Shown here in pieces: positions 1 to 47,240 of a stretch of 64,000 bases of DNA. Under the pieces are notes generated by a model, which was given only the letters and a program-made list of their open reading frames with translations, did no database searches and was not told the origin of the DNA. Position 1 is the first letter of the stretch; every line of letters begins with the position of its first letter. Origin of the DNA: a virus. Taxonomy: Duplodnaviria > Caudoviricetes. The stretch lies in IMG/VR virus record IMGVR_UViG_2886218242_000014, positions 622 to 64,621 of that record. One strand, written 5' to 3'. The position numbers and the translations under genes were made by a program.

Positions 1-297
1 TACATTAAGTTGCCTGCTCATGTGTTTAATGACCACAGAGGTAACCCACTCACAGTGAACGCTGTCAAGTTAATGTTCACCAGATTGTCTTCACGCATGG
101 GTTTCAAAACTACAGCTCACATGTTTAGGCATACCTATGCGAGCAACTGTTTAAGAGCTGGCATGGATATATACACCTTGAGTAAGCTTATGCATCACTC
201 CCAGATAAGAACTACTGAAGTTTACCTACATGCTTTCGGTAACTCGTTAGCTGAATCCAATGATAAGTATAACCCTCTCAATAGGTTTGACCTATAA
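1..297 (+). CDS. Tyrosine recombinase/integrase, C-terminal part (5' end outside window)
   Basis: AHMFRHTYAS and LMHHSQIRTTEVYLH catalytic HxxR / H / Y motifs. Confidence 0.9.
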   Translation, partial: YIKLPAHVFNDHRGNPLTVNAVKLMFTRLSSRMGFKTTAHMFRHTYASNCLRAGMDIYTLSKLMHHSQIRTTEVYLHAFGNSLAESNDKYNPLNRFDL

Positions 298-305
298 GTA
301 AACAC

Positions 306-347
306 AAAAGAGCCCTGCTCTAGTTTGGCGGCCAGACAGGACTCTTT
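306..347 (+). terminator. Probable intrinsic terminator after integrase
   Basis: AAAAGAG-CCCTG...CAGG-ACTCTTT inverted repeat right after the stop. Confidence 0.5.
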
Positions 348-434
348 CACAAAATAACTATGGAGCTATTTGCTTATATTGTACTACCCTAAGGTACACT
401 CTGCAAGTAACTCCTATTAAGGAGATTATTTACT

Positions 435-1187
435 ATGAAGGAACTACGAAAATATCAATCTTTTAATTCAATTACTGAGATGGACAATTCTATTAGTGAA
501 TACATGTCAGCGTACAAACTTAAAGAATCAGAGTACACAGTGTTATGGAAACTTGCTTGTTACTCATGCAAATTCATAGGAGTTAGCTACCTCAAGGTAG
601 ACTCTTTAGCTGATCTAACAGGTTACTCTAAGCGCACTATACAGCGTGCTCTCAAGGTTTTATCTGAACTAGGAATTATTACTCGTATCAACCAATTCAA
701 GCCAGTTAAGGGTGGCTATAGCGCTTCAATAACAGTGATCAATCCCTATGAGAGTCACCTTGCTAAGTCACCTTGTGAGGAATCTGTAGAGCCTACTCCT
801 GAGCGAATTGAGGAGCCTCCTTCTCATACAGATACAATTACTTACAAAACTAAAAGCTCTAAAGATAATACATACGTAGACGAGCTAGGCATAGATCACT
901 TAATTGCTGTTGGTGTTCCTGCTGAGTTCGCTAGCTTGGCTATCTCCTTCTTTGATGCAACTGAGGTGTACAAGTTATGGAGCCGTGTCCAATTAGCAGC
1001 ACGTAAACATGCACCTGACTTGGTGGAACTAACAGAGATCGCCGTCTCATCAGTACGAGCTAGTGTGCTGGCATCTAAGGTTAAACATGTGCGTGACTTC
1101 ACTGGATACTTCTACGGAGTTATCAGTCAGAAATTAACACAAGCTCAACGTTCTCTTAAGTGTCGTCTGTTTAACTTCCTTCAGTAG
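435..1187 (+). CDS. Winged-HTH replication initiator-like protein
   Basis: N-terminal HTH (SLADLTGYSKRTIQRALKVLSELGII), low-complexity linker, C-terminal FTGYFYGVI motif typical of Bacillus Rep-like proteins. Confidence 0.65.
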   Translation: MKELRKYQSFNSITEMDNSISEYMSAYKLKESEYTVLWKLACYSCKFIGVSYLKVDSLADLTGYSKRTIQRALKVLSELGIITRINQFKPVKGGYSASITVINPYESHLAKSPCEESVEPTPERIEEPPSHTDTITYKTKSSKDNTYVDELGIDHLIAVGVPAEFASLAISFFDATEVYKLWSRVQLAARKHAPDLVELTEIAVSSVRASVLASKVKHVRDFTGYFYGVISQKLTQAQRSLKCRLFNFLQ

Positions 1188-1256
1188 GATTACTGTAAGT
1201 AATAATCCATACCATCTGGTTGCTTTCTTATAGTGGTTACCCCTAGAGATGGCGCT

Positions 1257-1387
1257 ATCAGGTATATGCTCGATTGGATACTGGGTAGGCATTCAATCTG
1301 GTTCCTGTCCTACCTCTGTGGGTACAATCTATAGGTGACTTAGTAAAACTAAGTGAGCTGGCATCTCATCAGGCATATGCTCGATTG
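1257..1387. repeat. Two 20-bp direct repeats ATCAGG(T/C)ATATGCTCGATTG in the post-rep intergenic region (candidate origin or cis site)
   Basis: Copies at 1257-1276 and 1368-1387, one mismatch. Confidence 0.75.
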
Positions 1388-1646
1388 ATTACCCGTTAAG
1401 ATTGGTAACGGCAAAGAATGACCTCTCAGATTCCCTTGTATGAGATTCTGTGAGACAGACACTAGTGTTCGTACCTAAACAGGTTAACTTGCTTGTACAG
1501 TCTTTATGTGGACTCTGTGAGGAAGATACGTTTTCCGATCTCTAATGGTACCCAGACAGCTACTGTATATCGAGTGCGAAAAAAAGTTTAACAAAAGGGT
1601 TGCGCAACTTCTCGAATACGTGTTAAGATGATTTCAAGCAAGGGAG

Positions 1647-1844
1647 GTGACAAACTTGCAAGAGAAACAACTGAGATACTTCACTAAGATTATGGACGCC
1701 TACTCCCTAGATTCAATCGAGGAGGCCCAGAGGTTCTACAAACTGTTCAGCGCCCTCAAGTTATTACCACCGAGTAAACGCAAGGAACTAGTAGACTTAT
1801 CTTTTGAACGTATCAATGCAGGCAAATCCATTGTGGATAAGTAA
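1647..1844 (+). CDS. Hypothetical protein
   Basis: GGGAGG RBS before GTG; sigma-A-like TTGCGC...TAAGAT promoter at about 1600-1629. Confidence 0.6.
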   Translation: MTNLQEKQLRYFTKIMDAYSLDSIEEAQRFYKLFSALKLLPPSKRKELVDLSFERINAGKSIVDK

Positions 1845-1988
1845 ACACAAATAGCCCTACCTAGCGAACACCCTGAGAAAGTGGCTAGATAAGGCTATGC
1901 AATTCAGTCGAACCAATACAGGCTCTCCCTCCATAGTAACATGGGTAGGAATAGCTGTAAAGGTTCGACCTCAATAGGAGGCGATCTC

Positions 1989-2090
1989 ATGAACGAAGAA
2001 CTAAGAGAAGCCATCGTTGTTGTTAGTGGCTCTACAGCTTTCTTGTTTGGAGCTGGATACTTAGTCAGTTACTTAATCGTTAACTTCTAA
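1989..2090 (+). CDS. 33-aa hydrophobic microprotein (MNEELREAIVVVSGSTAFLFGAGYLVSYLIVNF)
   Basis: AGGAGG RBS 7 nt upstream; one transmembrane-like stretch; below ORF-track cutoff. Confidence 0.6.
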   Translation: MNEELREAIVVVSGSTAFLFGAGYLVSYLIVNF

Positions 2091-2128
2091 GCTTTCACCT
2101 ATCTCATAAAATACTAGGAGGAATACAA

Positions 2129-2347
2129 ATGAATACAATTGTACAGGTAACTAAAGAGGATATTGTTATGCACGAGATCGACACATTAGTATCTCATTAT
2201 CAGGATGCACTGGCTCGTGTTACTGATAATGAATGTGTAGTAGATACATTCCAACTAGGCATTATATACGTAGTAACCCTGAGAGCTGGCCGAATCTTCA
2301 AGGCTCTTAGCTTCAATCTACAAGAGTTGACTGAGGAGGCAAACTAA
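2129..2347 (+). CDS. Hypothetical protein
   Basis: AGGAGG RBS; 3' half duplicated at 2781-2917. Confidence 0.7.
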   Translation: MNTIVQVTKEDIVMHEIDTLVSHYQDALARVTDNECVVDTFQLGIIYVVTLRAGRIFKALSFNLQELTEEAN

Positions 2348-2448
2348 TGGCATATACTGTATTGACTGTCTTAGGAATAATTGGAATGAATGTGGCTATG
2401 GTGGTTATGAATTTAGAAGAAGACCAAACTAAGGGGGAACTCAAATGA
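2347..2448 (+). CDS. 33-aa microprotein with hydrophobic N-half (MAYTVLTVLGIIGMNVAMVVMNLEEDQTKGELK)
   Basis: GAGGAGG RBS, TAATG coupling upstream and ATGA coupling downstream. Confidence 0.55.
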   Translation: MAYTVLTVLGIIGMNVAMVVMNLEEDQTKGELK

Positions 2449-2765
2449 ACTTATTCAAACGAGTACTAGCATGGGAGAAACGTGAAAGAGAGAACCTATT
2501 CAGCCAGCTCAAGGGTGACATACAAACCCACAAAGACAGACTTGTTAGTGGCGCTGAGTTCTACCTAGACGGTGAACGCTGGATAGTAACTGGTATGTCC
2601 GATCTCAAGGTGGTTTGGAGCTACAGAGAAGCAAACAGACGTGCTCATACAATGACCAATCAATTGACAGGTGAGAAAGCTAAGTTGAACATGAACCACA
2701 TAAGTAAGATTAGAAAAGTTAGGTACAATCCAGTGACTAATGAGGTAACAGCCTTTGAGTATTAA
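2445..2765 (+). CDS. Hypothetical protein
   Basis: AAGGGGG RBS, translational coupling. Confidence 0.65.
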   Translation: MNLFKRVLAWEKRERENLFSQLKGDIQTHKDRLVSGAEFYLDGERWIVTGMSDLKVVWSYREANRRAHTMTNQLTGEKAKLNMNHISKIRKVRYNPVTNEVTAFEY

Positions 2766-2779
2766 CACTAAACTCACTA

Positions 2780-2917
2780 TCTCGTATCACCAATAAAGTT
2801 TGCAAAGTAGATACATTCCAACTAGGCCTTACGTATGTAGTTATCTTACGAGCTGGCAAAATCTCTAAAACTCTTAGTTTTAATTTAAACGAATTAACTG
2901 AGGAGGAATACCAATGA
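2780..2917 (+). pseudogene. 5'-truncated duplicate of the 2129-2347 gene, including its downstream RBS
   Basis: Reads SRITNKVCKVDTFQLGLTYVVILRAGKISKTLSFNLNELTEEEYQ versus ARVTDNECVVDTFQLGIIYVVTLRAGRIFKALSFNLQELTEEAN; no start codon in frame. Confidence 0.8.
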
Positions 2918-3192
2918 AAAAACGAATGGTTGTTTTCCTGTCCAGTATTATCCTGCTGAGCGCCTGCAACAGTTCAACAATCTCCGAAGATGAGTATAAC
3001 TCTCTAGAGGAAGGGATGACGCTCTCAGAGGTTGCAGATCTCGTGGGCGGTAACGGAGAGCGTACCAGCTCTAATGGCTACACAGACGTAACCTACGATG
3101 GTGACGGTGAGGAAACTGGTGAGATTGACTTTGCAGTTATGGTATTCGAAAAGGGTAAACTAAGAGTATGGGACCGAGTAGATAATAACTAA
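2914..3192 (+). CDS. Small acidic lipoprotein
   Basis: MKKR + hydrophobic stretch + LSAC lipobox; EGMTLSEVADLVG resembles DUF3862/SmpA-like folds. Confidence 0.75.
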   Translation: MKKRMVVFLSSIILLSACNSSTISEDEYNSLEEGMTLSEVADLVGGNGERTSSNGYTDVTYDGDGEETGEIDFAVMVFEKGKLRVWDRVDNN

Positions 3193-3227
3193 GGGGAATA
3201 AACCAAAATCTCTAAGGCACTCCCCCT

Positions 3228-3260
3228 GAGCTGACTCTCATTGAGTCGGCTCTTTTTTTT
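3228..3260 (+). terminator. Intrinsic terminator
   Basis: GAGCTGACTC-TCATT-GAGTCGGCTC followed by a T run. Confidence 0.85.
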
Positions 3261-3447
3261 CTCATCGATATCATTACGGTAATTGAAATTATATTTTGTA
3301 TTCATGTGAATACCCTTATGAGACCACCTACTGAGGTTACACCCGATGTTACCTATATGTATTTTCTCTGTAAGTCTATATTCCCCACAGACACCTACCC
3401 CTATGGCCATAAAAATAGGTAGCCTCTCGGGATAGAAGCTACCTCAG

Positions 3448-3531
3448 TTAACCAAACAGCCATATGAAAGCTATCCAAAAGACGGTATTAAAGAATGCAC
3501 CTACCATGACTCCTCTGTAGAGATCACTCAT
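3448..3531 (-). CDS. 27-aa hydrophobic microprotein (MSDLYRGVMVGAFFNTVFWIAFIWLFG)
   Basis: GAGGAGGT RBS; followed by a minus-strand terminator-like hairpin. Confidence 0.55.
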   Translation of the reverse strand: MSDLYRGVMVGAFFNTVFWIAFIWLFG

Positions 3532-3546
3532 CGACATTACCTCCTC

Positions 3547-3612
3547 TTATAGACTTATCACTAAAGCGTACACAAATCCTAACAGGAATACTGCTATAGC
3601 TAACTTGTCCAT
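3547..3612 (-). CDS. 21-aa hydrophobic microprotein (MDKLAIAVFLLGFVYALVISL)
   Basis: Directly follows the 3617-3871 ORF; AGGAGTG RBS-like sequence upstream. Confidence 0.45.
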   Translation of the reverse strand: MDKLAIAVFLLGFVYALVISL

Positions 3613-3616
3613 CTCA

Positions 3617-3871
3617 TCACACTCCTACGGCCAGCTCATAGAGAACAACTATGGCAGCAAGCAATATAGCTCCTCCAAACCATACAGCACCAGCTAGCAG
3701 GAACATCCCACCATAGATATACAAGTAGGACTTAGCTACATCCCACTTGTTATCCGGAGGAAAGCCTAGCTTCTTGAGGCCACTATTGCTCTTCTTCTTA
3801 CGAGCCTGCTCTAATGCCTTCCTGTCCTCTTCCTCTAGCAGACTCTTAAACCTGTGTTCTAGTTTGACCAC
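3617..3871 (-). CDS. Small membrane protein
   Basis: Charged N-terminus, C-terminal hydrophobic helices; GAGGAAGTG RBS. Confidence 0.65.
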   Translation of the reverse strand: MVKLEHRFKSLLEEEDRKALEQARKKKSNSGLKKLGFPPDNKWDVAKSYLYIYGGMFLLAGAVWFGGAILLAAIVVLYELAVGV

Positions 3872-4003
3872 ATTAGATCACTTCCTCTGATTGAATTAGA
3901 TTCATTAGTTCATCTCTTATAGCACCACATCGAGTACGGCATAGAAATTACCGACGCAACCAAGTACTACTTAGTCAGCTTCACTTCGACCACTGTAGCC
4001 ATA

Positions 4004-4249
4004 TTAATGACCTCCCTCTAGGATTACTAGTTCTTTGTTGGATTCAAAATACTTTCTTGATACCTTACGAGTACGAACGCTGTTGAGCGTTCCTCCTAGT
4101 GGCTCGATAGACTCCCTCACTAACCTCTCAGTGTTCCCTCTCAGTTGTACCGCTGCTAAGACTGGGTTACCCTCCATAGCCACACACTGTTGAGTTTCCA
4201 TGTGTTCGCCGTTCTCAATAAAGTTAACATTCACTTGGTAGTAATTCAC
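4004..4249 (-). CDS. Hypothetical protein downstream of satellite TMP
   Basis: GAGGTG RBS, coupled to upstream ORF. Confidence 0.7.
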   Translation of the reverse strand: MNYYQVNVNFIENGEHMETQQCVAMEGNPVLAAVQLRGNTERLVRESIEPLGGTLNSVRTRKVSRKYFESNKELVILEGGH

Positions 4250-4518
4250 CGTCTAACACCTCTTTTCTGTAGGTTAAGGTCTTGCTTCCCTTCTCTGGAG
4301 AGTGCGTGTCTTTTGTATTCAATCTCGCTTACTTCTCTAGGAGTAACACTAATGAGATCGCACTGAGTAATAACGAAAGCTTTCTCGTATGCTCGTTTGG
4401 TTGCCACCGAGTAGGCTTCCATCGTCTCGTTGATATCGTCCTCAGTTTGGAACATACGGCTATCTAGGAATCTCTCATTGTTTTGCTTGTAAGCTATGTC
4501 TATACAGAAATAATTCAT
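4246..4518 (-). CDS. Hypothetical protein downstream of satellite TMP
   Basis: AAGGAG RBS region; 90 aa. Confidence 0.7.
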   Translation of the reverse strand: MNYFCIDIAYKQNNERFLDSRMFQTEDDINETMEAYSVATKRAYEKAFVITQCDLISVTPREVSEIEYKRHALSREGKQDLNLQKRGVRR

Positions 4519-4560
4519 TGTCCATCTCTCCTTTTAATAACCAAGGAGACCGAAGTCTCC

Positions 4561-6885
4561 CTAGTATTTTCTAATTGATTGTTGTAAGCCACCATAGTCC
4601 ATTCTGCTTAAACCTTGCTCATAAGCTGTTCTTGTGACTCTCTGCTCTACAGTTGCTTTAAGTTGTTCTCCATTTACATCTACCTCGCCAGAAATACTAT
4701 GCTCGTGCTTATGAGTAACTGTGATAGCTGTCTTTCCTCCAGTGAATGCCTCTAAACCTGTACCCGCTAGAGCTACATTAGCCTCATTAGCAACCCCTTT
4801 GAAGGCACCTCCTACAGCACGTTCCATCGATCTCACTTGTGTTAATGCAGCTTCATACCACGTAGGGAAGAACGCTTCACCTGATTTGTCTAAGTCTGAT
4901 AGAGGCCCTTTCTTTGCTGGTGAGAACGGTAAGTAGGCACGAATGTTTTTCATACCTCTAGAGACAGCATCAGCAGCATCCCCAAATCCTTTCCAAATAC
5001 CATTTACGAACTCACTAAGTAACCCTTTACCTGAGTTGTAGAAGTCTCTGAAGTATCCAGTGAACTTGTTTACCATCTTTCTAATTCCGTCTCCTGTGGC
5101 GCTAACAGCATCGTTGAATCCATCTCTCACAGAGTTCTTTAATGCTCTTAGCATATCTGAGCCAGCTTCTCCAAAGTTACTTACCTTGTCTTTAGCAGCT
5201 TGAACCATATCGTTAAACTTCTGCTTAGTGTCATTCAGCATTCCTTGTAATTTATCTACTGTCTTACTCTTTAGTTCTTCGTATTTCTCGACAACACCGT
5301 TCTTCAAGTTAGTTACTTTCTGCTTAGCATCATTAACAATACTGTTCCACTTGTTAGCATTGTCTTGGAGGATACCTTGTATCTTATCGACTGCAGCTTG
5401 TTTCAGCTCCTCGTACTTCTCGACAACCTTATCTTTCATTTCCTGAGCTTTCTGTTTAGCATGGTCTACCGTGTCATTCCATTTCTGCTTAGTCTCATTC
5501 CACCACTGTTTAACAGCCGCAATCATCTGATCGTGAGCATCACCAATAGCCTTAGTCATTCCGTTCCAAGCATCCTTAACCTTGTCCCAAAGCTCCTGAG
5601 CATATTTCTTAACCTCATCCCAGTTTTGATATAGGAGAACGCCAATAGCGATTACTGCTGCAATGGCTGCTACTACCCAGAACCAAGGAGAAGCCAACAG
5701 CGTCATACTCAACCGACCTAGCAACTTGATAGCGTCAAGTATCCATGAACCAAACAATTTACCTATCTCGATTACCTTATTGATAGCCTTTCCTGTATCA
5801 TCAATCCATGTAGCTACACTAATAAGAATGCTGAATGTTTTGAAGCCTGCCCAGAGAGCTGCTACTAGAGGGATTAACCAATTAGCATTATCTACTACGA
5901 ACTGGATAGCATTGCTCACTAGACCTAAAGCAGTATCAAGAGCGCCTGACTCTCTAGCCCACTCCATGAATCTATTAGCTAACTCGAATACCTGTATAGA
6001 TACTGGTGCTAACGCTTGGATGATATCCCACAGAGTCAACACTAAGTTGCCTATGAATTGCATAATGACTGGCGTACTCGTCTTAACAAAGTTAACGAAG
6101 TCTTGGAAGGCTGTATTCGATTGTAATCCTGCTGCCCAGTTAGCGAACTTCTGAGTCAGATCTACCATGCCATTCCCTAAGTCCATACCTAGTGGAGTGA
6201 ATGCTATCATAATGTCGCTGAACCCCTTGAGGATATTACCAGCAGACTTCATTACCATTTCGAACATCGGAACCGCAAAAGTATTCATATGCTCGAAGAA
6301 CTTATCAGCTTTACCTTGAGTGATACCTTCGTTCATTTTGCCTATCATGTTGGAAAATGATTGTCCGACTCCTTGGAAAGAAGGGAACAATTTAGTCATT
6401 GTTAATCGGAGAAAATCTGTAGAGTTAGCTATGAGGTTTAACGTAGTAGGAGCCATTTGATTTTCCATCTCTCGCCAAGCATCACTGAGGTTGTTGATAG
6501 CTACTACAGCTTTCTTTTCCTCATCGGTGAGGCTCTCCATGATGGCTTGTATCAGAGCCATTTGTTTGGCATAACCTTTCGTGTCACCTGCTATCAGGGC
6601 TGCGTTAGCCTTGAGTTGAGCTTCCTCTAATTGGTTTGCCTTCTCCACAGTCTTCATTATTGTAGTAGTCGCTAAAGCACCAAACCCTGCAGCCGCTATA
6701 CCAGCAGTACCAAACAAGGAAGCAACTGCTCCGAGTCCACCTAACAGAGCTGGAGTCATTGCGCTTGCTGCTATCGTGATACCGCCTATGATGGCTGCCA
6801 TCTTCTTCGCTTCCGAAGAGGTTTGTCTGAATTGACCGCTAGCTCTATCTTGAGCTTGAATTATAATATCTATCACTGAGGCCAT
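4561..6885 (-). CDS. Tail tape measure protein, second (satellite) copy, 774 aa
   Basis: End-to-end similarity to 19553-21886 (ASVIDIII.AQDRAS... to ...GLQQSIRKY), Trp-periodic helical repeats. Confidence 0.92.
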   Translation of the reverse strand: MASVIDIIIQAQDRASGQFRQTSSEAKKMAAIIGGITIAASAMTPALLGGLGAVASLFGTAGIAAAGFGALATTTIMKTVEKANQLEEAQLKANAALIAGDTKGYAKQMALIQAIMESLTDEEKKAVVAINNLSDAWREMENQMAPTTLNLIANSTDFLRLTMTKLFPSFQGVGQSFSNMIGKMNEGITQGKADKFFEHMNTFAVPMFEMVMKSAGNILKGFSDIMIAFTPLGMDLGNGMVDLTQKFANWAAGLQSNTAFQDFVNFVKTSTPVIMQFIGNLVLTLWDIIQALAPVSIQVFELANRFMEWARESGALDTALGLVSNAIQFVVDNANWLIPLVAALWAGFKTFSILISVATWIDDTGKAINKVIEIGKLFGSWILDAIKLLGRLSMTLLASPWFWVVAAIAAVIAIGVLLYQNWDEVKKYAQELWDKVKDAWNGMTKAIGDAHDQMIAAVKQWWNETKQKWNDTVDHAKQKAQEMKDKVVEKYEELKQAAVDKIQGILQDNANKWNSIVNDAKQKVTNLKNGVVEKYEELKSKTVDKLQGMLNDTKQKFNDMVQAAKDKVSNFGEAGSDMLRALKNSVRDGFNDAVSATGDGIRKMVNKFTGYFRDFYNSGKGLLSEFVNGIWKGFGDAADAVSRGMKNIRAYLPFSPAKKGPLSDLDKSGEAFFPTWYEAALTQVRSMERAVGGAFKGVANEANVALAGTGLEAFTGGKTAITVTHKHEHSISGEVDVNGEQLKATVEQRVTRTAYEQGLSRMDYGGLQQSIRKY

Positions 6886-6969
6886 TTAGTAATCACATCC
6901 TTATGTTTATGAGAACGACAAATAAGCCCACCTGCAAAGTAGGCTAGTAAGATCCGTCCTCACTAGTTC

Positions 6970-7614
6970 TTATTTTTCCATCCCATCAAACAAGCTATTG
7001 AATAAATTTACGTTCGTAGAGTTAGATGAGTTCTCACGAGACTTCTTAAACTTACGAGACATACCTAAGTCGTCAAGTAACTTGATAGCCCTGTTCTCAA
7101 AGTCAACCATTGAGACCTTCTCATTGACTGCATAGCTCATCGACTTACCATTCTTTCTCCAACTCTTCAGTGTATTGATTAGAGCTAGGTCAAGTTTAGC
7201 AATGTCTAGGGGATCTAAGTCTTCGTAGTTATTCTTGTACCACTCCATAGTGTCGCTATACCAGTCCTTTTCCTCCTCGGTTAATGTCGCTAAGAAGTCT
7301 TTCTGATACAACCCATGTATTGGCTGTCTCCCTTTAGCTAAGTTTTCTTTCATTTTGTTTTTTCCCTCCTCTGTAGTTGCTCCTGTACTTTTACCTCCAT
7401 GGAAACAGCAACGCAGATTCTTCTCATTAGAAGGAATACGAGTACACACTTCTCCGCTACCCTTGATAGCTCCGCATATAGACGACTCCTTCTTGAGAAA
7501 CTCCTTAACGAGTGCCATCTCCTCAGAATCCTTTTTAAGATCTCCGTTAGCTAGACCTGATTTAATGTTGTCTATGTACTTTTGGAGATCCTTCCTTAAT
7601 TTCTTTTTAGCCAT
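6970..7614 (-). CDS. HGGxSTG-domain protein, putative terminase small subunit (satellite copy)
   Basis: ICGA...C...RCCFHGGKSTG; paralogous to 52684-53400, shared LFDGM tail. Confidence 0.7.
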   Translation of the reverse strand: MAKKKLRKDLQKYIDNIKSGLANGDLKKDSEEMALVKEFLKKESSICGAIKGSGEVCTRIPSNEKNLRCCFHGGKSTGATTEEGKNKMKENLAKGRQPIHGLYQKDFLATLTEEEKDWYSDTMEWYKNNYEDLDPLDIAKLDLALINTLKSWRKNGKSMSYAVNEKVSMVDFENRAIKLLDDLGMSRKFKKSRENSSNSTNVNLFNSLFDGMEK

Positions 7615-7615
7615 A

Positions 7616-7933
7616 TTATTTCTTCCTCTGGCCTAGACCTAGGCTAGCCATATACTTATCGTAATAAGCTCGGTCTTCCTTGCTCATCTCGATAGGCTTT
7701 TCTTTCTTGCCGATGCTGATTAGGTACTCATCGTATTCCTTTTTGAACTTAGCCTGTTCGTTAGCTTTCTTTTGTTCAGCAAATGCTTTCTTGTCTTCCT
7801 CAAGTTGTTTGTTCATTCGGTCAATCTTTTCGTTAAACTCTTTGAATCGTCTCTCTAATTTCATTTGTGCAACCTTCTGTTGTGCGTTCATATTGTTTCC
7901 TCCTCGCTTGTTTAATCTGTATGAGAAAGCCAC
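7616..7933 (-). CDS. Charged coiled-coil hypothetical protein (likely start ATG 7891)
   Basis: GAGGAGG RBS before MNAQQK; K/E-rich helix. Confidence 0.65.
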   Translation of the reverse strand: MAFSYRLNKRGGNNMNAQQKVAQMKLERRFKEFNEKIDRMNKQLEEDKKAFAEQKKANEQAKFKKEYDEYLISIGKKEKPIEMSKEDRAYYDKYMASLGLGQRKK

Positions 7934-29757: not shown

Positions 29758-29786
29758 TTGACTCCATGGTATGACCATGGTACTAT
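29758..29786 (+). promoter_or_regulatory. Sigma-A-type promoter with conserved spacer (representative of about 16 copies)
   Basis: TTGACT-17 bp containing GGTATGACCATGG-TACTAT. Confidence 0.85.
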
Positions 29787-45392: not shown

Positions 45393-45754
45393 GGAGGTGG
45401 TAAGCTAATGAGAAAGTCATTATGGTGCAAAATAGGCTTTCACAATTGGATATGGTCTTGGACAGGTTTTCAGTTTTGTAAGAAATGCAAGACAAAAAGA
45501 ATAAGGATTTATGATTAGTCGTGCCACATTGAATACCAGTTCTTGAGCGTCCCCACCGAGGGAGGCTTATTTTTTTTGCCTACATAGGTATCAATACGGT
45601 AATACCTGAGTATGATAAGTAGTGTGCCAGATCGGTTGCCCGGTAGTGTAACCCATCGAGCATTACTGGACAGCCGATTCTACTGAGCTCGCACTCTGTA
45701 GGACAGGAACCAGATAGCAGGGAATATTACTAAATAGTAATAGGGAGTGGTACT

Positions 45755-46708
45755 ATGTTTTTCACCATAGGAGCTGCGCTCGCCTCGGGAGCGGCTATAG
45801 CGTATGCTATGTACGATTTACACTTTGAGTACGGCTTGCCTTATAAGATTAACTTGGAGGTGAATCCACGAGACGACTGGCAAGTCCCTATAGGGGTTAA
45901 CGAACAGAGGGAGCAAATCCTATTAGACTTCGCCAAGACTCCCCATGTTTCCCTAGGAGGCGGAACTCGTTACGGTAAATCTAATCTCCTCAATAGCATA
46001 ATCGTTAGTCTCCTCACGAGTAAGCCTAGAGATGTTAAATTCACTTTAGTTGACCTCAAAGGAGGAATCGAGTTAGGAGGATACGAAACTGTTAAGCAAG
46101 TCACAGGAGTTGCCTACGAGCCAGATGAAGCATTACAGATGCTATCTCGTGTGTACGACATGATGAAGGCTACACAAGTAGAACTCCGTAGATCCAAACG
46201 TAGGAAGGTAACTGACAAGAAACACTTTATCATCATAGACGAGGCAGGAGAGTTGAATCCTAACGAGGCAATAGATAGGGAAGAGAAGCTCATGAAGGTA
46301 GCCTGTCAGAAGTACATGAGTCAGATAGCTCGCCTAGGAGCAGGCCTCGGATTCCATCTCATACTAGCCACCCAGTATCCCACCGGAGACGTGCTACCTC
46401 GGCAGTGCAAACAGAATAGTGATGCCGTGATATCCTTCCGTGTACGCTCGGCAGTAGCCTCCAAAGTAATACTTGACTCAGGAGGAGCTGAGGAGCTGCC
46501 AGATATCAAAGGGAGGGCGATCTTTATCCAAGGAGCCAACACCCATCTGGTGCAAACTTACAGGGTAAACGAGCAGCAAATCAGGCATACTATAAAGAAT
46601 AACAAGAGGAAGGTGAGACACCATGTCCAACTCCCCGAAGTTAAAACCGCTGAGCCAGCGCCAAGAGAGGATACTTTTATCATTGAGGAGACTCGGTTTT
46701 CTGACTAG
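45755..46708 (+). CDS. FtsK/SpoIIIE-family ATPase
   Basis: GGTRYGKS Walker A, VDLKGG, IIIDEAGE, ILATQYP. Confidence 0.92.
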   Translation: MFFTIGAALASGAAIAYAMYDLHFEYGLPYKINLEVNPRDDWQVPIGVNEQREQILLDFAKTPHVSLGGGTRYGKSNLLNSIIVSLLTSKPRDVKFTLVDLKGGIELGGYETVKQVTGVAYEPDEALQMLSRVYDMMKATQVELRRSKRRKVTDKKHFIIIDEAGELNPNEAIDREEKLMKVACQKYMSQIARLGAGLGFHLILATQYPTGDVLPRQCKQNSDAVISFRVRSAVASKVILDSGGAEELPDIKGRAIFIQGANTHLVQTYRVNEQQIRHTIKNNKRKVRHHVQLPEVKTAEPAPREDTFIIEETRFSD

Positions 46709-47240
46709 GAGCCAACTCCAGAGAATCCACCAGTTAGGAAAGACAAGGAACACCAATAGGATACTCAACGAGATAGACGACTATGTGATTCACTACCGAG
46801 AAGGATACGATACAGTGTACTACCTGAGTAAACTCGGCAGGGAATACGTCCAAGCAAAGAGACAACTCAGGAAGAATCAATTTGTCGGACACATACTTAT
46901 GAGAAACGAATGGTTTATCTATGCAGGTATGCCATCTCACTGGAAAAATGAGGTCAAAATAGGTGATGCTACCGAGACAAGAATCTGCGATACACTCTAT
47001 GAGGAAAATGGCTTTCTGAAAATCCTCGAGGTTGACAGACTTCAGAAGATGAGCGAGAATAGAGTCAAAGCTCAATCATACTATGGTATGTACAAAAGAG
47101 GTGCAGCTACGAGGAAACTTGGGTATTTTCCTACGGTAGTCTGGCTCACCTGTACTGAGCTGAGAAGGAAACAGTTAAAGGGTATATGTAACGAGTTAGG
47201 ATTACCCTCCGAGGTTTATACTTTGGAGGACATACAGTGA
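46623..47240 (+). CDS. Replication-relaxation (relaxase-like) protein
   Basis: LRRLGFLTRSQLQRIH; HILMRNE; ILEVDRLQ; usual partner of phage FtsK in Bacillus phages. Confidence 0.8.
   Translation: MSNSPKLKPLSQRQERILLSLRRLGFLTRSQLQRIHQLGKTRNTNRILNEIDDYVIHYREGYDTVYYLSKLGREYVQAKRQLRKNQFVGHILMRNEWFIYAGMPSHWKNEVKIGDATETRICDTLYEENGFLKILEVDRLQKMSENRVKAQSYYGMYKRGAATRKLGYFPTVVWLTCTELRRKQLKGICNELGLPSEVYTLEDIQ

Follow-up and report, generated by a model that had tools for sequence, protein, structure and literature searches.

What is a copy of a phage operon's leader doing behind the rep-like gene of a neighbouring satellite-like island? The question is raised by the 64,000-nucleotide window analysed here, which comprises bases 622-64621 of a 64.6-kb IMG/VR “provirus” record. 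A preliminary description of this DNA had noted that an intergenic region at 1257-1387 shares exact motifs with the leader of the phage ftsK/relaxase genes. It had proposed that the satellite mimics either an oriT/nic-like site, so as to use the FtsK-relaxase of its helper for segregation or transfer, or a regulatory RNA. Our analysis tentatively favors a third reading, in which the island would carry a DNA-level mimic of a site that a helper protein recognizes.

The island occupies window positions 1-11706 together with the 621 bases that precede the window in the record, about 12.3 kb in total. It encodes a complete 305-aa tyrosine integrase, a rep-like HTH_36 protein (phrog_1835) at 435-1187, small genes without an assigned function, and a leftward operon containing regulators, Ant-like proteins, a phrog_6177 (TerS-like) paralogue and a tape measure protein (TMP). 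No head, portal or large-terminase genes were matched in window 1-11706, and phrog_6177 paralogues are common to the island and the phage. With its own integrase and Rep, its lack of head genes and its helper-related genes, the island looks like a phage satellite, while the link to a helper has as its basis the co-occurrence of the two elements in one assembly. The island TMP (4561-6885, 774 aa) is 62% identical over its full length to the phage TMP (19553-21886, 777 aa). A perfect 10-bp palindrome, GTTGCGCAAC, lies at 1599-1608 in the −35 region of the putative promoter of the gene at 1647; it occurs once in the window, is kept in two related islands (L071 and L073) and may be an operator.

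The remainder of the window is the ~52 kb genome of a siphophage, a distant relative of the Bacillus pumilus Andromeda-like phages. A phage homologue of the satellite Rep was not found, and the satellite Rep has no detectable homology to the phage Replic_Relax protein (RepR). There are no tRNA or tmRNA genes in the window, and GC skew tracks gene direction only, with no origin signal. A 54-bp exact direct repeat is present at the island-phage junction (11707-11760) and at the record end (63947-64000). In related phages with terminal repeats, the sequence is unbroken across the junction point, which falls within an Ant-like gene. In contigs from the probable source run, at a depth of 25, 20.8 kb of upstream DNA runs on into the island's first 4.9 kb, and contigs of this run end within the 54-bp repeat. 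Within the same assembly, contig depth is 25-34 for the satellite versus 104 for the phage. This difference in depth and the join to 20.8 kb of other DNA indicate that the island resides in a lower-copy replicon, probably the chromosome. Two explanations fit the 54-bp repeat: island and phage are truly in tandem, or the assembly has joined two replicons that have these 54 bp in common. A related island in Bacillus sp. MYb209 (L073) lies within a 118-kb contig, and a close helper ftsK is absent from the MYb209 genome (best match 40% identity).

The exact motifs that first drew attention to this region hold up on a search of the whole window. The 18-mer GTAGGACAGGAACCAGAT occurs exactly twice, at 45698-45715 (plus strand) and 1296-1313 (minus strand), where 0.03 occurrences would be expected even allowing up to three mismatches. 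ATCGAGCAT occurs three times in the 64 kb, at 1266-1274 and 1377-1385 (both minus strand) and 45655-45663 (plus strand), with 0.41 expected, and the satellite repeats that contain it measure 25 nt (1257-1281 and 1368-1392) and are 88% alike. All three copies of AACCAGAT likewise fall in the satellite intergenic region and the ftsK leader. The 18-mer is the longest non-coding exact match between island and phage among matches of at least 14 nt, and the only other non-coding exact match of at least 16 nt pairs 11163-11179 with 13571-13587. This 17-nt match connects the region upstream of the island's leftward operon with phage DNA immediately before the head protease gene, and a 15-mer at 11131-11145 of the island also matches 13564-13578 of the phage. 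By sequence, 11163-11179 looks like a second helper regulatory (late-promoter) element copied by the island. ATCGAGCAT was also said to follow a short hairpin directly in the phage and in one satellite copy. In the phage, ATCGAGCAT sits in the loop and on the 3′ side of a predicted hairpin; in the satellite, a 6-bp hairpin (1393-1411) lies 7 nt from the 1377-1385 copy.

Judged by alignment, the 18-mer and ATCGAGCAT are the tips of a ~125-nt colinear homology that is larger than first reported. When positions 1176-1312 were reverse-complemented and aligned with the leaders that precede ftsK in the window's phage and in seven of its close relatives (alignment A7), ~125 nt proved colinear, with their spacings preserved. 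The homology pairs the phage ftsK/Replic_Relax leader (45624-45742, plus strand) with a satellite module that we call B (1189-1303, minus strand). Its parts follow in the order block I, (G/A)CCAGATTGAATGCC; block II, GTGTAACCCATCGAGCAT(TACTGGACAG); block III, TAGGACAG(G/C)AACCAGATAGCAGGGA(A/T)TATTACT; and a short inverted repeat, ATTACT-loop-AGTAAT. In the phage the inverted repeat ends at the ftsK ribosome-binding site (45742-45750), and in the satellite it starts, on the other strand, 2 nt past the stop codon of rep. Two such modules stand in tandem in the satellite, of which module A (1296-1411) is weaker. The two overlap, in that the segment with the 18-mer serves module A as block III and module B as block I. 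The features of the satellite are as follows.

435-1187, plus strand: satellite rep-like gene (HTH_36; phrog_1835), with the same arrangement in L070, L071, L073, L140-L144 and L147-L150.
1189-1203, minus strand: inverted repeat ATTACT-GTA-AGTAAT, counterpart of phage 45726-45741.
1204-1232, minus strand: block III of module B, reverse complement TATAAGAAAGCAACCAGATGGTATGGATT, in relatives AGGACAGCAACCAGATAGCAGGGATTATTAC; identified from A7, nhmmer and conservation.
1257-1285, minus strand: block II of module B, holding ATCGAGCAT (1266-1274) and ACCTGAT.
1286-1315, minus strand: segment shared by module B (as block I) and module A (as block III); contains the 18-mer (1296-1313), and its reverse complement includes ACCAGATTGAATGCC.
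1333-1359, no strand assigned: small hairpin within module A, ACTTAGT-TTT-ACTAAGT, variable among satellites.
1363-1392, minus strand: block II of module A, with ATCGAGCAT at 1377-1385; profile match E = 0.002.
From module A block II to ~1356, minus strand: 12-nt-spaced pair GCCTGAT / GCCAGCT.
1393-1411, no strand assigned: closing hairpin CCGTTA-AGATTGG-TAACGG; the sequence past the hairpin varies between strains.

The corresponding features of the phage are the following.

45521-45541, plus strand: degenerate upstream CCAGNT-like pair (GCCAGAT-GTAAT-GCCAGAT in relatives), preceding the terminator and promoter.
45547-45577, plus strand: terminator-like hairpin and T-run that ends the upstream unit, read by eye and unlisted in the terminator/promoter scan.
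45589-45616, plus strand: weak variant of the phage early-promoter family, −10 TATGAT at 45611-45616, inferred start near 45622.
45624-45641, plus strand: block I, TGCCAGATCGGTTGCCCG; a 12-nt-spaced GCCAGNT pair in relatives.
45646-45673, plus strand: block II, GTGTAACCCATCGAGCATTACTGGACAG; 28-nt identity with the L073 satellite.
45699-45731, plus strand: block III, TAGGACAGGAACCAGATAGCAGGGAATATTACT, holding the 18-mer.
45725-45742, plus strand: TATTACT-AAAT-AGTAATA, an inverted repeat or hairpin that abuts the ribosome-binding site; its equivalent in distant ftsK leaders is a covarying hairpin ahead of GAGGTGGCG.
45755-46708, plus strand: FtsK/SpoIIIE-like ATPase, 317 aa, with an N-terminal hydrophobic segment.
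46623-47240, plus strand: Replic_Relax protein (RepR), with a winged helix (1-80) and a PD-(D/E)XK-like nuclease domain (86-205).

An nhmmer profile built from the eight phage leaders only recovers both satellite modules when run against the whole window, at 1191-1301 (minus strand, E = 2e-9) and 1294-1379 (minus strand, E = 0.002). The same phage-only profile detects module B in L070, L071, L073 and L140-L144 (E 6e-6 to 1.7e-19) and in four further Bacillus-genus genomes, L147-L150 (E 3.8e-7 to 1.1e-12). The element is thus kept in 13 satellite relatives and 8 close phages. In every satellite it closely follows the 3′ end of a rep homologue in antisense orientation, 2 nt past the stop codon in the window and within ~60 nt in distant relatives, and an integrase lies upstream wherever the satellite locus reaches far enough. 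The MYb209 satellite shares 28 identical block II bases with the window's phage. The element is absent from L072 and L145, which are distant rep relatives. Megablast and blastn searches against phage records returned only distant matches in the ftsK coding region, and a 15-mer scan of IMG/VR returned mostly chance matches; a second match in the L012 record falls in coding sequence. Block III exists as two subtypes, GGACAAC and GGACAG(G/C), each present in phages and satellites alike. In A7, phages L013 and L017 group with satellites L070, L143 and L147, while the window's phage (WIN), L011, L012 and L014 group with satellites WIN-A, L071 and L073. By sequence, the subtypes may reflect matched helper-satellite lineages.

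Conservation within the satellites was expressed as mean pairwise identity among four representatives. The inverted repeat and block III of module B reach 0.85-0.92 (0.92 for the inverted repeat, the highest value in the intergenic region, and 0.85 for block III), compared with 0.74 for the whole rep gene and 0.61 for its third codon positions in the same four satellites. The two block II copies are at ~0.65 and the rest of the spacer at 0.2-0.6. In diverged relatives, found as sequencing-run contigs, the spacer aligns only at 1173-1233 and 1358-1388, and satellites whose Rep is just 46-54% identical retain AGGACAG..CAG..AGGGATTATTACT-loop-AGTAAT. Because the core is conserved above rep and is kept in satellites with a diverged Rep, these comparisons indicate that the element is under purifying selection and is not a fossil. 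No conserved antisense ORF lies behind it. The presence of a selected homologous copy in 13 satellite relatives and 8 close phages makes it likely that the satellite copy of the helper leader is a functional mimic.

The phage leaders and the window's satellite also carry a short repeated motif, (G/A)CC(A/T)GNT. Each 250-nt phage leader holds 2-5 copies on the sense strand, with 4-5 in six of the eight, where 0.48 would be expected, and almost no copies on the antisense strand; the leader of the window's own phage has three. Some copies form pairs with a 12-nt spacing, at −231/−219 in most relatives and, as a second pair, at −128/−116 in L013, L014 and L017, and seven of the eight leaders have a single copy near −45. 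The upstream pair (A2) comes before the terminator and promoter and lies outside the ftsK mRNA. In the window's satellite, a 12-nt-spaced pair at ~1356-1374 is followed by copies centered near 1299, 1260 and 1217. The locus thus has several same-strand repeats near the operon of a DNA-binding protein, as in an iteron or centromere-like array. Since the phased same-strand repeats lie on both sides of the promoter, their resemblance to a protein-bound DNA array points to protein-DNA recognition.

Base-pair covariation was seen in one small part of the leader. In 41 distant leaders, whose ftsK is ~50% identical, a (C/T)(C/T)AGAT-like motif is followed after ~12 nt by a 6-9-bp hairpin, then after 4-5 nt by a near-invariant GAGGTGGCG, and usually by a second, real ribosome-binding site. 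These elements lie 30-60 nt upstream of ftsK (loci L020-L068), and their hairpin arms are completely different between groups. The arrangement resembles 5′ stem-loops with a Shine-Dalgarno-like sequence that stabilize mRNA, such as the cry3A STAB-SD. Across ftsK leaders the small repeat covaries strongly, with 43 cells changed on both sides and a covariation score reached by none of 500 shuffles, and RNAalifold predicts only this small hairpin in the distant leaders. Its pairs are almost all Watson-Crick, a pattern that suits a DNA dyad just as well as an RNA stem. The satellites keep the inverted repeat without the GAGGTGGCG core. For the large hairpin around ATCGAGCAT, 382 of 500 shuffles gave a covariation score as good, and its 77.8% paired cells, with the satellites added, were reached by 99 of 500 shuffles. 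Its 3′ arm is conserved as sequence and changes in its 5′ arm are uncompensated. Blocks I-III therefore behave as sequence-specific signals, since their sequence is conserved and the large hairpin is without covariation support. Searching the window against Rfam 15 gave no match at the gathering score, and matches with E up to 10 were chance microRNA matches only in both regions. A helix that sequesters the ribosome-binding site is predicted in the close phages, and the satellites are without that part. The phage early-promoter family consists of TTGAC(N), 4 nt, GGTATGACCATGG and TATGAT, with a spacer that is almost identical at six sites; members are found at 29768, 33786, 35403, 41135, 47584, 53508 and elsewhere, and the ftsK leader carries a weak variant only. 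If this weak ftsK promoter is used, blocks I-III form a 5′ untranslated region.

The proteins encoded behind the leader suggest what might recognize it. Replic_Relax lies directly downstream of ftsK in all 56 loci in which tblastn found Replic_Relax, and in the window repR overlaps ftsK by 86 nt. Pfam detected no FtsK gamma (winged-helix) domain in the FtsK-like protein, which makes a separate specificity factor plausible. The only Pfam match of RepR is PF13814, 'Replication-relaxation', and it has no sequence relatives in the PDB. An AlphaFold (AF2) model of RepR from 32 homologues (alignment A8) has a pLDDT of 94.9. Residues 1-80 of the model form a winged helix that best matches MarR/ArsR-type repressors and TubR of Bacillus plasmids (PDB 4asn, 6aht; Z ~10). 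Residues 86-205 form a restriction-endonuclease-like domain that matches AF1548, NucS and BstEII (Z ~8.9) and, by Foldseek, Card1, Can2, VC1899, FokI and BspD6I. The recognition helix is near-invariant across the family (R42, N43), and in the nuclease domain D123, E136, D138 and K149 are invariant; in the model the three acidic residues are compatible with an active nuclease. RepR would then be a sequence-specific DNA binder fused to a nuclease, and the predicted fold is more suggestive of a nuclease with site specificity than of a classical relaxase or a replication initiator. Bacillus phages commonly carry an FtsK/SpoIIIE-like gene paired with Replic_Relax, and the role of these pairs is a matter of speculation only in the papers found (PMC11526630, PMC9476937).

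Taken together, we consider a DNA-level mimic of the helper's recognition site the best explanation of the satellite element, with a probability of roughly 40%. The satellite would hold two tandem copies of the control region of the helper ftsK-repR operon that act mainly as protein-recognized DNA, composed of (G/A)CC(A/T)GNT iterons, some of them paired at a 12-nt spacing, of the core GTGTAACCCATCGAGCAT, and of block III with the inverted repeat. In the phage, a sequence-specific protein would bind this array around the promoter. The top candidate is the operon's own winged-helix/nuclease protein; RepR is the obvious choice because it is encoded by the operon and has a winged helix. Once bound, the protein would both regulate the operon and flag this DNA to the nuclease and to the membrane-anchored FtsK-like motor. 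With the same array beside its rep gene, satellite DNA would be recognized by the same helper factor, and either the RepR/FtsK machine would handle the satellite like helper DNA, allowing it to hitch-hike, or the factor would be titrated. Homology, copy number, position, strong purifying selection, motif phasing and protein folds are the observations behind this scheme, and from them we infer protein binding of the array, the identity of the binder and the consequences of binding. Some observations count against it. The recognition helix of RepR is near-invariant, yet the sole near-invariant DNA motif of most distant leaders, GAGGTGGCG, is missing from the satellites. The antisense placement right after the rep stop codon in all satellites would also be predicted if the element acted as antisense RNA, and a transition bias of 32 versus 14 fits the wobble tolerance of RNA-RNA pairing. 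In addition, the MYb209 satellite resides in a genome that lacks a close helper ftsK.

A more specific version of the recognition-site reading, which we hold to be rather unlikely, is that the FtsK-like motor works together with the winged-helix nuclease as a phage machine for handling DNA and that satellites copied its leader array as an “address label”. Loading or pumping of the phage genome while the cell sporulates or divides is one conceivable task for such a machine, whose specificity would come from the array of iterons and inverted repeat in its own leader. If true, this would be piracy of a centromere or loading site, a route of satellite-helper exploitation not described so far.

The strongest rival, though in our judgement a doubtful one, is a trans-acting antisense RNA, which reformulates the earlier suggestion of a regulatory RNA mimic. 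The plus-strand transcript of the rep operon would cross 1188-1412 and carry the complement of the ftsK-repR 5′ leader, and pairing upstream of the ribosome-binding site would lower FtsK and RepR synthesis or report the presence of the helper. The geometry is favorable, with the element directly behind rep and antisense to it in all 13 relatives. No terminator was found between rep and the element, so the rep transcript should carry the complement of ftsK leader positions −132 to −13. The hairpin at 1393-1411 closes the element, with variable sequence past it (in a related strain, 1393-1462 is replaced by other sequence). Identity to the phage consensus is ~70% over ~100 aligned columns, which amounts to extended complementarity; perfect duplexes of 18 nt (with the window's phage) and 28 nt (L073 with the window's phage) are possible, and the best-conserved part complements ftsK −56 to −13. 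The predicted duplex energy of the satellite plus strand with the phage leader is −98.5, against −66.8 +/- 6.3 for shuffles, a difference that restates the complementarity. The complement ends short of the ribosome-binding site, however, and the hairpin loops of the window's phage and its satellite are not complementary. Substitutions relative to the phage consensus in four satellites favor G.U-compatible changes (32 versus 14), but mutation bias linked to transcription could also produce this, and the four satellites do not count as independent. There is a precedent in the PLE satellite, whose small RNA SviR regulates ICP1 transcripts (bioRxiv 10.1101/2022.04.08.487710). An antisense RNA would leave unexplained the CCAGNT pairs that the phage retains outside the ftsK mRNA.

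It is also unlikely that block III and the inverted repeat are a copy of a helper-timed promoter, that is, of a proximal ftsK promoter or operator. Firing leftward with a shared sigma factor or activator, such a promoter would produce RNA antisense to rep and int and switch both off at that stage. The island appears to have copied a helper late-promoter sequence elsewhere (11163-11179 = 13571-13587), and the spacing from AGGACA to GGGA(A/T)TATTA is a constant 14 nt in phages and satellites. Compared with the B. subtilis sigma-F consensus (−10 GGNAANAMTR, −35 GTATA; PMC3416734, Table 4), GGGAATATTA matches the −10 element at 9 of 10 positions and GGACA matches the −35 element at 3 of 5. The scan, however, found no sigma-70-type site at block III or the inverted repeat, the phage has no further promoter-like copy of GGACA-N17-21-TATTA, and the −10-like bases differ between close phages (L015, L016). 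A promoter copy would have no conserved antisense ORF to express, and it would leave blocks I and II and their duplication unexplained.

The oriT/nic-site mimicry that was proposed first, in which Replic_Relax would nick a core beside a hairpin and an FtsK-like coupling protein would export single-stranded satellite DNA, now appears very improbable. The Pfam name of PF13814 favored it, as does the order of inverted repeat, 4-5 nt and conserved GAGGTGGCG directly upstream of the operon in distant leaders, and the RepR nuclease domain could in principle nick DNA. The predicted RepR fold is a winged helix with a PD-(D/E)XK domain, however, and its top structural matches include no relaxase. The best-conserved part of the satellite element is block III with the inverted repeat (1189-1232) and not ATCGAGCAT, whose hairpin is without covariation once satellites are included, and the GAGGTGGCG core is missing from satellites. 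Conjugation or type IV secretion genes were not seen among the ORFs scanned with PHROGs. On the model and the alignments, a conjugative oriT fails on two defining features, a relaxase fold and an inverted repeat with its core in every element.

Least probable is that the element is a functionless leftover from past recombination, at the ftsK leader, of a phage with an ancestor of the satellite: satellite and phage do exchange DNA (TMP paralogues 62% identical at the amino acid level, shared phrog_6177 paralogues) and module A is degenerate and partly deleted in L071, but the core stands at 0.85-0.92 against 0.74 for the whole rep gene and persists where Rep is only 46-54% identical. Separately, a pac site seems unlikely, with the terS-like gene 7 kb away, and dif/Xer, DnaA-box, Spo0A-box, sigma-B, sigma-H and ECF sites were poor fits when compared by eye with consensus sequences.

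Several known systems resemble the one proposed here, each in part. The late promoters of the P4 satellite (Psid, PLL) carry the activator site of the late promoters of its P2 helper. As in P4/P2, the satellite holds a copy of a helper cis-regulatory sequence, so that a helper-encoded factor would act on both genomes; unlike in P4/P2, the copy comes from an ftsK/nuclease operon, is duplicated and antisense to its neighbors, and has no gene behind it and no known activator. The PLE small RNA SviR is similar in that a satellite sequence is complementary to a helper mRNA (10.1101/2022.04.08.487710). SviR is a mapped small RNA, whereas the ~125-nt complementarity described here follows from homology to a whole leader.

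Partition and conjugation systems offer comparisons at the level of DNA recognition. TubR-tubC of Bacillus plasmids and ParR-parC have arrays upstream of the partition operon that serve as both centromere and operator. Like TubR-tubC, the phage locus has phased direct repeats upstream of an operon for a winged-helix binder and an NTPase, and the RepR model superposes on TubR (Z ~10), a fold match that does not equate to function. It differs in having an FtsK/SpoIIIE-type motor as its NTPase, a nuclease fused to the binder and only 3-5 motifs. With relaxase oriT/nic sites it shares an inverted repeat beside a short conserved core upstream of the candidate acting genes, and it differs in having no relaxase fold, no conjugation genes seen and no GAGGTGGCG in the satellites. 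KOPS, for FtsK, and SRS, for SpoIIIE, are chromosome-wide motifs read by the motor's own gamma domain. The motifs here are similarly short (7-8 bp) and oriented, and winged-helix reading is here proposed to direct an FtsK-type motor; unlike KOPS and SRS, they are clustered in one leader and the motor is without a detectable gamma domain.

That satellites copy helper regulatory DNA, as in P4/P2, or make RNA against helper transcripts, as with PLE SviR, is thus already known. What is new is the target, the conserved leader of a widespread and uncharacterized phage FtsK/Replic_Relax module, together with a model-based assignment of the Replic_Relax fold as a winged-helix nuclease and a family of at least 13 Bacillus satellite-like islands that keep the selected leader without its genes. 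The satellite probably borrows or blocks the phage FtsK-like pump/nuclease system. The copied leader indicates which DNA to test for binding or cutting by RepR, making the function of the phage module testable, and it may represent a new case in which a satellite exploits or silences a helper system through copied non-coding sequence.
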